From assembly GCF_044324785.1 (NCBI RefSeq), contig NZ_CP172127.1: DNA of 64,000 nt. One strand, given 5' to 3'. This DNA is from Escherichia coli (lineage in GTDB: Bacteria > Pseudomonadota > Gammaproteobacteria > Enterobacterales > Enterobacteriaceae). The notes beneath the pieces were generated by a model. It did not search any database and was not told the DNA's origin. It saw nothing but the letters and a program-made list of their open reading frames with translations. Positions 3,344-8,286 of the stretch are shown piece by piece. A program made the position numbers and the translations under genes. How positions within the stretch are numbered: position 1 is the first letter of the stretch; each line of letters starts with the position of its first letter.

Positions 3344-4390
3344 ATGCCAGTTTTGCAGTGGGGAATGTTATGTGTGCTATCACTTCTCCTTTCTATTGGT
3401 TTCCTCGCGGTACATCTCCCGGCGGCACTATTACTTGGGCCGATGATCGCCGGGATCATCTTTAGTATGCGCGGAATTACTCTGCAACTTCCTCGCTCCG
3501 CTTTTCTCGCCGCCCAGGCCATTCTTGGCTGCATGATTGCGCAAAACCTCACTGGTTCGATTCTCACCACGTTGGCCGCCAACTGGCCGATAGTGTTAGC
3601 CATTTTACTGGTGACGCTGCTTTCCAGCGCCATCGTGGGTTGGTTATTGGTGCGCTATAGCTCACTGCCTGGAAATACCGGTGCCTGGGGTTCTTCTCCT
3701 GGCGGCGCGGCGGCAATGGTCGCTATGGCGCAAGATTACGGCGCAGATATTCGCCTGGTGGCGTTTATGCAATATCTGCGAGTGCTGTTCGTCGCGGGGG
3801 CGGCTGTTCTGGTCACCCGCATGATGCTGGGCGATAACGCTGAAGCGGTTAACCAGCAGATCGTCTGGTTCCCGCCAGTGAGCATTAATCTCCTGCTTAC
3901 GATTTTGCTCGCGGTCGTTGCCGGTACGGCGGGATGCTTGCTACGTCTTCCTTCCGGCACAATGCTCATCCCGATGCTGGCGGGCGCAGTGCTCCAGTCT
4001 GGTCAGCTCATCACGATTGAACTCCCGGAATGGCTGCTGGCGATGGCGTATATGGCAATTGGCTGGAGGATTGGTCTTGGTTTCGATAAGCAAATCTTAC
4101 TGCGAGCATTGCGCCCACTGCCACAAATCTTGCTGTCGATTTTTGCTCTGCTGGCTATTTGTGCAGGTATGGCGTGGGGGCTGACCCGGTTTATGCATAT
4201 TGATTTTATGACCGCCTACCTCGCCACCAGTCCCGGCGGGCTTGATACCGTGGCGGTCATCGCCGCAGGGAGCAATGCCGATATGGCGCTTATTATGGCG
4301 ATGCAAACCCTGCGCCTGTTCAGTATTTTGCTGACGGGGCCAGCCATTGCGCGGTTTATTTCAACCTATGCGCCGAAGCGGTCGGCCTAG
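3344..4390 (+). CDS. abrB: AbrB-family inner membrane protein (putative transporter/regulator)
   Basis: ORF 3266..4390; ATG at 3344 after GAGGGAGCGAAGG; highly hydrophobic multi-pass membrane protein. Confidence 0.75.
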
Positions 4391-5178
4391 TGCTGGCAGC
4401 CTGGACACCAGTAAAACGGGCGCGAGGACAGCGTAGTTTTCTCAATGATGCCGCCACAGCGTTCGCACGGTTCGCCATCACGATGAAAAACCTTAAAGCG
4501 AAACAGCGCCCCATGATATTTGTTTTCATCCACCTGCCCCCGCGTAGCGTAAGAAAGTCGCGGAATATCCAGTAACGCGTGTGCGAGTGCATCCAGTTGC
4601 GCCGCATTGAGATCTTTCGCTTTATGATTTCCGGTTAACCCCACCTGCCAGAGGATCTCCACCCGCAAATAATTGCCAAGTCCTGCCAGAAACGCCTGAT
4701 CGAGCAGTAATCCAGCAAACTGACGGTTACGAAAGCGCGGCGACAATAATCGTTCCTTTACCACCTCCGGCGTCAGATTCGGATCCAGCACATCGGGGCC
4801 GACTCGTTGTAAAAACGGATGCGTGGTCAGTTGTTCCGGGGTCAACATCTCAATATCCGAGGCGCTATAAAGCAGAATGGTTTTGTCAGCCGTTTGCAGT
4901 TTTACCCGCAATACTCGCGTGGTCTGCGGCTCTTCGCCGGTATCAACCACGCGCCAGACGCCGTAAAGCTGATTATGGCTGTAGAGCGTTAAACCGTTGG
5001 AAAAATGAGTTAACAACGCCTTACCTCGCGTTTCCACATGGGTAACGTGTTGACCGATAAGTTGTGATTGATAAGGTTCTAACTGCGGGAAGGCAAACCA
5101 GACATCAGTTAGTGGTTTGCCTTTGATCGCCGCCTCCAGGTTATCCGCTGCACGGCGGATCTCCGGGCCTTCAGGCAT
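4387..5178 (-). CDS. nei: Endonuclease VIII (DNA glycosylase/AP lyase)
   Basis: 263-aa ORF beginning MPEGPEIRR (Fpg/Nei N-terminal PEGPE motif); C-terminal zinc finger CxxC...CxxC. Confidence 0.9.
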
Positions 5179-5213
5179 GGTGATATCCTTTTTTCATTCT
5201 TTATTAAGCGGGG

Positions 5214-5948
5214 TTATGCTGCGACAACAATCCCCTTTTCGGCAAATGTAAAGCGTAGTCGGCGGGCGAATGCCAGTGCGTGTTCTCCATCGCCATGCAG
5301 GCAGACCGTTTGCGCCGTGACCGTTGCCCATTCGCCGTTGATACTTTTGACTCTGCCGTGTTGCACCATCTCCAACGTTTGCGCCAGCGCCTGTTCTTCG
5401 TCTTCAATCAGCGCTCCTGGCTGGCTTCGCGGCACCAGCGAGCCGTCAGCCTGATAACCGCGATCGGCGAACACTTCCTCGCGCGTTGTCAGGCCATATT
5501 GCTTGCCTGCACGAATCAGCTCGCTTCCCGCCAGCCCGACGAGAATCAATGCCGGATCGCAAGCGTATACCGCTCTGGCGATAGCGTCTGCCAGTTGTGC
5601 CTCTTTCGCCGCCTGGTTGTATAACATGCCGTGCGGTTTGACATGACGCATTACGCCGCCTTGCGCACGGGCAATCGCTGCCAGCGCGCCAATTTGATAC
5701 AGCGTCTGGGCGTAAACGGTTTCTGGCGGCAGCTGCATGGCGCTGCGACCAAAATTTTCCCTGTCGGGAAAACTCGGGTGAGCGCCAATCGCGACACCAT
5801 TTTTTATTGCTTCACGCACGCAAGCCTGCATGGTTTGCGCATTGCCTGCATGAAATCCACAAGCAATATTGGCAGAGGAAACCAGCGTTAATAGCTCTGC
5901 GTCGCTGGCGCAGCCTTCGCCCAGATCGGCGTTCAGGTCAATTTTCAT
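5214..5948 (-). CDS. pxpA: 5-oxoprolinase subunit A (LamB/YcsF family)
   Basis: 244-aa [15 protein letters not shown]; LamB/YcsF family signature; operon with pxpB/pxpC. Confidence 0.85.
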
Positions 5949-6870
5949 TGTGCAGCCGCCACGCTAATTGTTCGAAATAACGTTGCTGATCTTGCCGTGC
6001 TTTCAGTGCCTCTTCCAGTGAACACTGGACAAAATGAATCGGCTGACCGAGCGGAATTTGCGCCAGATGGTACATATCAGCCTCAATGATACAGGCAATA
6101 CGCGGATAACCACCGGTGGTCTGTGCGTCGTTCATCAATACAATCGGCTGGCCGTTATGCGGTACCTGCACCACACCCGGCAACAAACCGTGAGATAACA
6201 GTTCGCGATCGGTGGTACGTTTTAAAATTTGCCCCTGTAAGCGATAGCCCATTCGGTTACTTTGCGAGCTAAGCTGCCAGGGCGAACGCCAGAATGCATC
6301 CTGTGAGGCGCGATCGAACTCATGATATTCCGGCCCCGGCAAGGCGCGAATGCGGTTGCCCCACAGCAACTGTTTAACGCCCTGCGCTTCCATAAAATCA
6401 CGCTTCGCTTTGCCAATCGGGAGTCGGTCACCATCCTTCAGTAAACGGCCTTCCAGCCCGCCAATCCCCACTTTGAGATCGGTGCTGCATGACCCCATTA
6501 CCGGCGGAACATCAATACCACCCGCGACCGCCAGATAACTGCGCATCCCGTGCTGCGGGCGTTTAAGCGTTAAACGCTGGCCTGCTTTCATCGGCAATCG
6601 CCAGCCGGTCCAGACGGCGTTATCATCCAACCGCGCTTCGCAACCGGCCCCCGTCAGAGCAAACCACCCATCAGTTTCGAACTCAACCGTTAACTGACCG
6701 AGCGTGATCTCCAGCGCGGGGGCATTGGCGTCATTACCCACCAGTAGGTTAGCAATGCGTAACGCGGGCATATCCAGTGCGCCGCAGTGGCTGATACCCG
6801 ACTGGCGAAAACCGTGACGACCGCCATCCTGCACAGTGGTATACATGCCCGCACGAATAATCTTCAGCAT
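5938..6870 (-). CDS. pxpC: 5-oxoprolinase subunit C (allophanate hydrolase subunit 2-like)
   Basis: 310-aa ORF overlapping pxpA start and pxpB stop; recognised as YbgK. Confidence 0.85.
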
Positions 6871-7520
6871 ACTCCCTCCTTCTGCGGTACAAAGCGCACG
6901 CTGTCTCCCGGACGTAATAAGATGGGTTCGTCACGCGCCGGATCAAACAGGCTGAGTGAGGTATGACCAATCAACTGCCAGCCACCCGGCGTTGCCAGCG
7001 GATAAACACCAGTCTGCGGCCCGCCGATCCCGACAGAACCTGCCGGAACGAGCAAGCGCGGTTCAGCGCGCCGTGGCGTGTGTAGTTGTTCCGGCAAACT
7101 CCCGAGATACGGGAAACCCGGCTGAAAGCCCAAAAACCAGACCACATATTCCACGGAGGAGTGCAGTTCAACGACCTGTTTTTCGCTCAACCCACAATGC
7201 GCCGCGACCACCGCCAAATCCGGTCCGCCTGCGCCACCGTAAACCACCGGAATTTCAATAAAACGAGACTCCGGCTCCAGCGCCTCACTCTCCTCCCACC
7301 AGCGTTGCAAACGCTCTATGGCATCCAGTGCCAGCGACTCAGGATTACGTAAAATCACCGTGATATTGTTCATGCCGGGAATGGCTTCAACCACATTCGG
7401 CATATCCACCAGACGCTGCGCCAGTCGCCAGATCCGTTTCTGGCTAGCCAGCGTCACCGGCGGTTCCAGCTCCAGCACTACCGCCGTTTCACCTATCAGA
7501 TAACAACGCGCTCGTTGCAC
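6864..7520 (-). CDS. pxpB: 5-oxoprolinase subunit B (allophanate hydrolase subunit 1-like)
   Basis: 218-aa ORF recognised as YbgJ; overlapping gene arrangement suggests translational coupling. Confidence 0.85.
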
Positions 7521-7542
7521 TTTCGATCCCTCTGATTATTCG

Positions 7543-8286
7543 TTATGCAGGATTAGGAATATCAATAAAGGTCACATCAAGATCGGTATTTTCATTCAGC
7601 CACTCGCTCAATGCGCGAATACCACCGCGTTCAGTGGCATGGTGACCCGCAGCATAAAAATGCAATCCCTGCTCGCGGGCTGAATGAATGGTCTGTTCTG
7701 AAACTTCGCCAGTAATAAAAGCATCCACGCCAAAACGCGCGGCGCTATCGATAAAACTTTGCCCGCCGCCCGTGCACCAGGCAACGCGCTGGACCACCTC
7801 AGGTCCGGTATCGCCACACCATAACGGCTTACGTCCCAGACGCGCTTCAATCCAGGAGGCTAGTTCCAGTCCCGGCACAGGCATGGTCAGTTCGCCCCAC
7901 GGCACCAACGGCTCAATTTCGCCCATGACCGTGATCCCCAGTAACGCCGCCAGCTGTGCGTTATTGCCCAGCTCAGGATGTGCGTCAAGCGGCAAATGCC
8001 AGCCATACAGGTTGATATCATTTGCCAGCAACGTTTTTAAACGGTTACGCTTCATGCCGCGAATGACCGGAGATTCGCCTTTCCAGAAGTAGCCATGATG
8101 CACAATGACCGCATCCGCGCCCAGACGCACTGCCTCATCGAGCAAAGCCTGGCTGGCAGTGACACCGGTAACAATTTTTTGCACCGTCTCTTTGCCTTCC
8201 ACCTGCAAACCATTCGGCGCGTAATCACTAATCGCCGCGCTGTTCAGTTTTTCGTTAATCAGTTGTTCCAGTTCGGTGTTTTTCAT
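7543..8286 (-). CDS. ybgI: Nif3-family dinuclear metal-centre protein
   Basis: 247-aa ORF recognised as YbgI; first gene of minus-strand ybgI-pxpBCA-nei cluster. Confidence 0.85.
   Translation of the reverse strand: MKNTELEQLINEKLNSAAISDYAPNGLQVEGKETVQKIVTGVTASQALLDEAVRLGADAVIVHHGYFWKGESPVIRGMKRNRLKTLLANDINLYGWHLPLDAHPELGNNAQLAALLGITVMGEIEPLVPWGELTMPVPGLELASWIEARLGRKPLWCGDTGPEVVQRVAWCTGGGQSFIDSAARFGVDAFITGEVSEQTIHSAREQGLHFYAAGHHATERGGIRALSEWLNENTDLDVTFIDIPNPA

Follow-up and report, generated by a model that had tools for sequence, protein, structure and literature searches.

We analysed a 64,000-nucleotide (nt) stretch of Escherichia coli DNA (NCBI RefSeq assembly GCF_044324785.1, contig NZ_CP172127.1), referred to here as the window, and in it an array of five genes, ybgI, pxpB, pxpC, pxpA and nei, which encode a Nif3-family protein, the three subunits of a predicted 5-oxoprolinase and the DNA glycosylase endonuclease VIII. 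The open reading frames (ORFs) of the window place the array at 4387-8286 on the minus strand, with transcription running from high to low coordinates (Table 1). The initial annotation had described five same-strand genes in this interval, with overlaps of 7 and 11 base pairs (bp). This layout was confirmed by the ORFs, by the sequence at the junctions and by the annotation of E. coli N3 made with the Prokaryotic Genome Annotation Pipeline (PGAP), in which the starts, stops and overlaps of all five genes are the same as in the window. The five window proteins are 99-100% identical to those of strain N3, and the 4.4-kb segment was found in 5,422 of 5,426 complete E. coli genomes.

Table 1. Positions of the ybgI-nei array, its junctions and the neighbouring features in the window
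Feature	Position	Strand	Description	Basis
ybgI	7543-8286	-	first gene; Nif3/DUF34 dinuclear-metal protein	ORF and profile matches
pxpB (ybgJ)	6864-7520	-	5-oxoprolinase subunit B; GTG start	ORF and profile matches
pxpC (ybgK)	5938-6870	-	5-oxoprolinase subunit C	ORF and profile matches
pxpA (ybgL)	5214-5948	-	5-oxoprolinase subunit A (LamB/YcsF)	ORF and profile matches
nei	4387-5178	-	endonuclease VIII; last gene	ORF and profile matches
ybgI-pxpB spacer	7521-7542	-	22 nt; GAGGGA ahead of the GTG start	read from sequence
pxpB/pxpC overlap	6864-6870	-	7 bp, ATGCTGA; pxpB stop TGA, pxpC start ATG	read from sequence
pxpC/pxpA overlap	5938-5948	-	11 bp, ATGAAAATTGA; pxpA start ATG, pxpC stop TGA	read from sequence
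pxpA-nei spacer	5179-5213	-	35 nt, CCCCGCTTAATAAAGAATGAAAAAAGGATATCACC; AAGGA 8 nt ahead of the nei ATG	
Candidate sigma-70 promoter of ybgI	8322-8350	-	TCGACG (8350-8345), 17-nt spacer, TATGTT (8327-8322)	phylogenetic footprint only
Inverted repeat	8434-8467	.	perfect 12-bp repeat TATTTATGCAAT-N10-ATTGCATAAATA (arms 8434-8445 and 8456-8467); dtpD-ybgI divergent region	
abrB	3344-4390	+	convergent with nei	Pfam AbrB
dtpD	8557-10038	+	POT-family dipeptide permease; separates phr from ybgI in the window	Pfam PTR2; PGAP
phr	10081-11499	-	photolyase; same strand as the array	Pfam DNA_photolyase and FAD_binding_7

A nucleotide comparison of region 4200-8600 with the same 5,426 genomes gave a best identity of 98.6%, and all matches fell in the 95-99% band. 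The source strain carries an allele of the array region without an exact representative among these genomes, and this is an ordinary allelic variant. The base composition (52-58% GC) is unremarkable and gave no sign of recent transfer. A scan of the window against Rfam gave no RNA family within the operon or close to it.

The gene identities given by the initial annotation (a Nif3-family protein, a three-subunit 5-oxoprolinase and Nei) hold throughout, as every product scored above the cut-off of its NCBIfam equivalog and the Pfam assignments agree. YbgI matched NF008064 at 531.6 bits (cut-off 414) and also TIGR00486; the Pfam DUF34_NIF3 match spans residues 1-246, and residues 1-247 align with the solved structure of E. 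coli YbgI, 1nmo (E = 1e-168). Its translation has a full-length DUF34 domain and carries H63, H64 and D101, which are reported to be among the ligands of the dinuclear metal site (Ladner 2003). PGAP labels the protein 'radiation resistance protein'. A review of the DUF34 family rejects the propagated annotation "GTP cyclohydrolase I type 2", puts forward a function as metal chaperone or insertase and, in its Table 1, describes YbgI as "putatively involved in DNA repair", partly from operon context (PMC8469502).

PxpB matched TIGR00370 (355.6 bits, cut-off 145.55; Pfam CT_C_D), PxpC matched NF045499 (593.9 bits, cut-off 500; Pfam CT_A_B) and PxpA matched NF003812 (512.2 bits, cut-off 378; Pfam LamB_YcsF) as well as, over its full length, the solved structure of E. 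coli YbgL, 1xw8 (E = 2e-152). With all three subunit families (LamB/YcsF, CT_C_D and CT_A_B) above curated equivalog cut-offs, PxpABC is a predicted prokaryotic 5-oxoprolinase by family membership. The enzyme turns 5-oxoproline into glutamate with the use of ATP; ybgJKL were reportedly identified as encoding it by Niehaus et al. in 2017. Nei scored 501.2 bits against NF007763 (cut-off 252), contains the Pfam domains Fapy_DNA_glyco, H2TH and zf-FPG_IleRS, and matches the full length of the solved E. coli Nei structure 1k3w (E = 1e-175). The translation begins with MPEGPE (Pro2, Glu3) and holds Lys53 and a zinc finger of the form CERC-x16-CPGC (CxxC-x16-CxxC). Nei removes oxidised pyrimidines from DNA.

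The conservation of the array was followed in a sample built from a Nei scan with one genome per species, of which we used the best 80 of at least 550 matched genomes, all Enterobacteriaceae, with a Nei identity of 76-97%; the neighbours of nei were placed by tblastn in these 80 loci. The 7-bp pxpB/pxpC junction, which has an AGGAGG a few nt upstream in the window, was kept as ATGYTRA in 73 of 74 loci. For pxpC/pxpA, 43 of 66 loci keep the 11-bp geometry with the start codon at the same place. Because the junctions are conserved to this extent, the overlaps can be judged not to be due to chance. The idea that they are artefacts of start-codon choice was rejected in view of the identical PGAP starts and the same conservation. 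The gap between ybgI and pxpB measured 11-22 nt in most of 75 loci.

Transcription signals were examined with a sigma-70 and terminator consensus scan, whose counts were no higher than those in shuffled sequence; the scan is weak evidence, unable to locate the ybgI promoter or to rule out a weak one for nei. At the gene junctions of the array it gave no terminator-like site on the minus strand, nor did it give a promoter-like site on that strand between ybgI and nei; within the array, minus-strand terminator-like sites were confined to the coding sequences of ybgI (∼7725-7745) and nei (4494-4513). Folding of the 35-nt pxpA-nei spacer gave no hairpin followed by a U-run. A spacer without a terminator-like fold, together with a stretch from ybgI to nei without promoter-like sites, is what read-through expression of nei predicts. 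At the distal end, nei and the convergent abrB share 4 bp at their stop codons (4387-4390), so that there is no room for an intergenic terminator after nei, and the consensus scan found no minus-strand terminator-like site below 4387. For these two reasons the operon transcript should end within antisense abrB.

A candidate promoter came from alignment A1, which covers the dtpD-ybgI intergenic region of ten genera. The blocks TCGACG and TATGTT were conserved in nine of the ten genera, with a variable spacer between them, and TCGACG-N17-TATGTT is taken as the likely candidate for the ybgI promoter.

The genes ahead of nei varied between species. In 71 of the 80 species the gap between nei and the same-strand array gene ahead of it is 4-59 bp, and that gene is pxpA in 23 (three of them on short contigs), pcp in 39 and pxpC in 9. 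The most frequent arrangement, ybgI-pxpB-pxpC-pxpA-DUF969-DUF979-pcp-nei, was present in 37 species from Klebsiella, Citrobacter, Raoultella, Leclercia, Lelliottia, Siccibacter and other genera, with a gap of 13-24 bp ahead of nei. In these loci DUF969, DUF979 and the pyroglutamyl peptidase gene pcp were identified by Pfam between pxpA and nei (e.g., L043:4614-6985 and 36 further loci). The five-gene form of E. coli was found in 20 species (Escherichia, Enterobacter and a few others; gap 4-59 bp), and three species on short contigs are consistent with it (gap 17-22 bp). Two species have pcp alone ahead of nei (gap 15 bp). In nine species, among them Buttiauxella and Pluralibacter, the locus is without pxpA and nei follows pxpC at 10-24 bp (L055, L061, L064, L068, L069, L071, L073, L074 and L078; the absence of pxpA refers to the locus only).

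Longer gaps of 289-1172 bp behind pxpBCA were seen in seven species, comprising Salmonella arizonae, one Citrobacter amalonaticus (strain S646, with 289 bp between the array and nei) and Kluyvera. The Kluyvera loci of this group have a same-strand DUF1266 gene just ahead of nei (L026:6032-6922; L037:5990-6922). Kluyvera georgiana has ybgI, a DUF1266 gene and nei, and no pxp genes; it reads as the loss of the whole of pxpBCA, leaving ybgI-DUF1266-nei. In Salmonella diarizonae an unrelated transporter/glycosyltransferase island lies upstream of nei. Remnants of DUF969, DUF979 or pcp were considered for the E. coli spacer and rejected, as 35 nt is too short; a tblastn search of the loci with intermediate gaps also found no such remnants. 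The initial annotation had called the arrangement conserved. That description stands for nei as the tightly spaced last gene and fails for the exact composition, since the five-gene form is found in only a quarter of the sample (20/80), the form with DUF969-DUF979-pcp is more frequent, pxpA is absent from nine loci, and some Salmonella and Kluyvera carry inserts or an island.

Outside the sample, lineages with 64-68% Nei identity (L089 and L092) still have pxpA-nei or pcp-nei. For three Nei relatives at 54-56% identity the neighbourhoods are unrelated and contain neither a pxp nor a DUF34 gene, so that the nei linkage is limited to Enterobacteriaceae and their near relatives. The metagenomic contigs L094-L096 (Nei identity 54-61%) are too short to show the gene upstream of nei, and the list of protein homologues holds only relatives of at least 81% identity, which makes it unsuited to distant contexts. 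In several metagenomic or metagenome-assembled lineages nei is truncated or frameshifted (197 aa, or two tblastn pieces) and still lies beside gltA (L089:7001-7594; L090, L091; L095). These copies could be pseudogenes or assembly errors.

Taken together, the segment is the known E. coli ybgI-pxpB-pxpC-pxpA-nei operon (formerly ybgIJKL-nei), probably a single transcription unit in which nei is linked by the sharing of a promoter. One mRNA would start in the dtpD-ybgI intergenic region, putatively at TCGACG-N17-TATGTT (8350-8322), would run through all five genes and would end, probably in a Rho-dependent manner, within antisense abrB. The oxoprolinase subunits would be translationally coupled through the ATGCTGA and ATGAAAATTGA overlaps, as the conserved junctions suggest, and such coupling of PxpB, PxpC and PxpA would keep the subunit stoichiometry. 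Translation of nei, 35 nt behind pxpA, would use the gene's own Shine-Dalgarno sequence, and with no terminator ahead of it nei would depend on transcription that reads through from the upstream genes. What nei would gain from the linkage is a constitutive housekeeping promoter shared with other damage-control genes, PxpABC removing or salvaging spontaneously formed 5-oxoproline and Nei removing oxidised pyrimidines. Since nei comes last whichever gene precedes it, promoter sharing best explains the linkage. On the evidence of gene order, selection for membership of a constitutive unit is favoured over a need for adjacency to PxpA, and we consider it less likely that the reason is a biochemical pathway common to Nei and 5-oxoprolinase.

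The initial annotation had read the five genes as one transcription unit, and this reading was upheld as a prediction by the lack of a terminator-like site, by the 35-nt spacer with its Shine-Dalgarno sequence and by an operon listing in the literature. The title of a paper by Gifford and Wallace (Nucleic Acids Res 28:762, from 2000) reportedly gives nei as the terminal gene of an operon. The operon table of a later paper lists nei, ybgI, ybgJ, ybgK and ybgL as one unit. A literature search by operon name (ybgIJKL, pxpA-nei and similar) found nothing. Co-transcription of the five genes in E. coli, which is predicted here, thus rests on the wording of that title and on that one listing. The initial annotation also called the arrangement functionally unexplained, and in the literature covered here it still is.

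Several observations weigh against this interpretation. The consensus scan found no promoter upstream of ybgI, and the candidate promoter fits the consensus at 8 of 12 positions only, below the scan threshold. A weak internal promoter of nei within pxpA may also exist, as far as the sequence allows a judgement. In Salmonella enterica the gap ahead of nei is 121 bp, in S. arizonae pxpA and nei are 795 bp apart, the DNA between them being AT-rich and non-coding (L019:6209-7000), and in S. diarizonae the island that adjoins nei holds ATP-binding cassette (ABC) transporter and glycosyltransferase genes, with no ybgI or pxp gene within 7 kb (L009:2500-7000). Given these wide gaps and the island, nei is therefore expressible without tight linkage. 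In addition, repair genes recur on both sides of the array, phr upstream and nei downstream, and the linkage may exceed promoter sharing. The reported co-occurrence of DUF34 genes with those for Nth, MutY, MutT and the Fpg family points the same way (PMC8469502).

The position of phr bears directly on this last point. Of 76 informative species, 28 have phr on the same strand as ybgI and 9-16 bp upstream of it (loci including L029, L034-L036, L039 and L040), and in 8 further species it is 72-273 bp upstream with nothing between. No dtpD gene intervenes between phr and ybgI in 36 of the 76 species; in 39, including Escherichia and the window, it lies between them on the opposite strand. The distant locus L089 (Nei 64%) has the order ybfA, ybgA, phr, ybgI, pxpB, pxpC, pxpA, nei, followed by gltA on the other strand. 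The short phr-ybgI spacing suggests a longer phr-ybgI-...-nei unit; from the phr adjacency and the order in L089, the wider block is therefore (ybgA-)phr-ybgI-(5-oxoproline genes)-nei. The E. coli form appears to be one that was interrupted by dtpD and is without DUF969-DUF979-pcp, with the direction of these changes judged from the distribution.

Such a block could be a DNA-damage module in which YbgI, as a metal chaperone or insertase, serves the repair enzymes (e.g., the zinc-finger protein Nei) and possibly the metal-dependent PxpA, and in which the 5-oxoproline genes are variable cargo. We consider this unlikely, while noting that it accounts for several features of the data. The close phr-ybgI spacing and the dtpD-free loci, including L089, agree with it, as does the variable middle of the array (pxpBCA or pxpBC, with or without DUF969-DUF979-pcp), in which ybgI and nei keep the ends even in K. 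georgiana with its zero pxp genes. The PGAP name of YbgI also fits. In the DUF34 review, Nth and MutT are in the top 20 clusters of orthologous groups of DUF34 operons, MutY, the Fpg family and PhrB appear in representative operons, and the metal-insertase role is proposed; the same review lists a ybgI mutant with no ultraviolet (UV) survival defect, which speaks against the module (PMC8469502, Table 1). The short ybgI-pxpB spacing in most loci makes the link of ybgI to the oxoprolinase at least as close as that to the repair genes, and the Nei relatives outside the clade are not beside DUF34 genes.

A historical version of this proposal holds that an ancestral damage-control supra-operon, (ybgA-)phr-ybgI-(5-oxoproline module)-nei, contained real YbgI-Nei and YbgI-photolyase partnerships, with YbgI serving the flanking repair enzymes as a metal insertase or an accessory factor, and that E. 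coli has a rearranged remnant of it produced by dtpD insertion and DUF969-DUF979-pcp loss. We regard this version as improbable.

It is very unlikely that nei is independent, with its own promoter, and merely lies beside the pxp genes, so that the five genes are not one operon. The separations in S. enterica, S. arizonae, S. diarizonae and C. amalonaticus S646 favour such independence, as other transcription signals are needed there, and the consensus scan is insensitive to weak promoters and missed any ybgI promoter too. The E. coli spacer, by contrast, is short and without a terminator or promoter-like site. In 71 of 80 species nei follows closely behind one of three different genes, and a conserved internal promoter would need to arise in each. 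The Gifford and Wallace title, for its part, places nei at the end of an operon with which it is transcribed.

The least credible proposal is that the operon couples glutathione turnover, with 5-oxoproline from the gamma-glutamyl cycle, to oxidised-base repair under oxidative stress. The initial annotation had spoken of glutathione-cycle metabolism. This label is imprecise, as the genes that accompany pxpBCA in sister genera encode a 5-oxoproline transporter and pyroglutamyl peptidase, and no glutathione gene was found in any locus examined. Gifford and Wallace are said to have seen no induction of nei by oxidants. In favour of the link are the established activity of Nei on oxidised pyrimidines and the enzymatic formation of 5-oxoproline in glutathione degradation; against it, Glu and Gln also give rise to 5-oxoproline spontaneously (PMC13274462). 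In 37-39 of 80 species pxpBCA is accompanied by DUF969/DUF979 and pyroglutamyl peptidase genes, which indicate pyroglutamate uptake and salvage instead, and DUF969/DUF979 are required for growth of Campylobacter jejuni on 5-oxoproline (PMC12795558). The neighbours in the array thus suggest that pyroglutamate is disposed of or salvaged.

The operon itself, the proteins it encodes and three of their structures have been described before. Compared with ybgI-ybgJ-ybgK-ybgL-nei of E. coli K-12, the window has the same five genes in the same order and on the same strand, with starts, stops and overlaps equal to the RefSeq annotation and no difference of substance. The eight-gene form of Klebsiella, Citrobacter and others shares with the window the flanking genes, the 7-bp pxpB/pxpC overlap and nei in the last position; it has a putative 5-oxoproline transporter pair and a pyroglutamyl peptidase, which the window lacks, pxpA being followed directly by nei. 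The rsxABCDGE-nth operon of E. coli, reportedly named in the same title of 2000, likewise has a base-excision glycosylase for oxidised pyrimidines, endonuclease III, as its last gene behind functionally unrelated genes. Its upstream genes encode the Rsx/Rnf redox complex and have no sequence relationship to ybgI-pxpBCA-nei. The pxpABC and pxpTABC clusters contain the same three subunit families (Niehaus et al. 2017; Corynebacterium glutamicum, PMC13274462). In the window, in contrast, the order is B-C-A, and E. coli has no transporter or PxpR regulator there and has ybgI and nei attached. What the comparison adds is that nei is kept last behind differing genes, that the E. coli form is a minority and that phr lies directly ahead of ybgI in many genera, and it sharpens the question of what YbgI does and of why a 5-oxoproline module is flanked by two genes for DNA repair. 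These comparative details (the variable middle, nei in the last position, the phr adjacency, the candidate promoter and the inverted repeat described below) are context and not a discovery.

The dtpD-ybgI divergent region also contains the perfect inverted repeat listed in Table 1. The repeat has 0-2 mismatches in Escherichia, Citrobacter and S. enterica, and its core, AATATGC...TGCATAAATATACA, is invariant across the ten genera of alignment A1. It occurs only where dtpD is present and is absent in loci without dtpD. The repeat may be a regulator site or a piece of the dtpD promoter.

Further upstream in the window, ybgA overlaps the start of phr by 4 bp. Upstream of ybgA, an ORF with an Rhs-type core end and a C-terminal extension lies at 12290-13452, with a small ORF overlapping its end; the predicted pair resembles an Rhs toxin tip and its immunity gene. 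A cluster of five tRNA genes was found at 44642-45124 (Met, Leu(tag), Gln(ttg), Met and Gln(ctg)). The corresponding K-12 cluster, metT-leuW-glnUW-metU-glnVX, has seven genes, and relative to it the window seems to miss one copy of each Gln tRNA. The Rfam scan placed the small RNA sroC at 53512-53674 (174.8 bits), where it is expected in this part of the E. coli chromosome.

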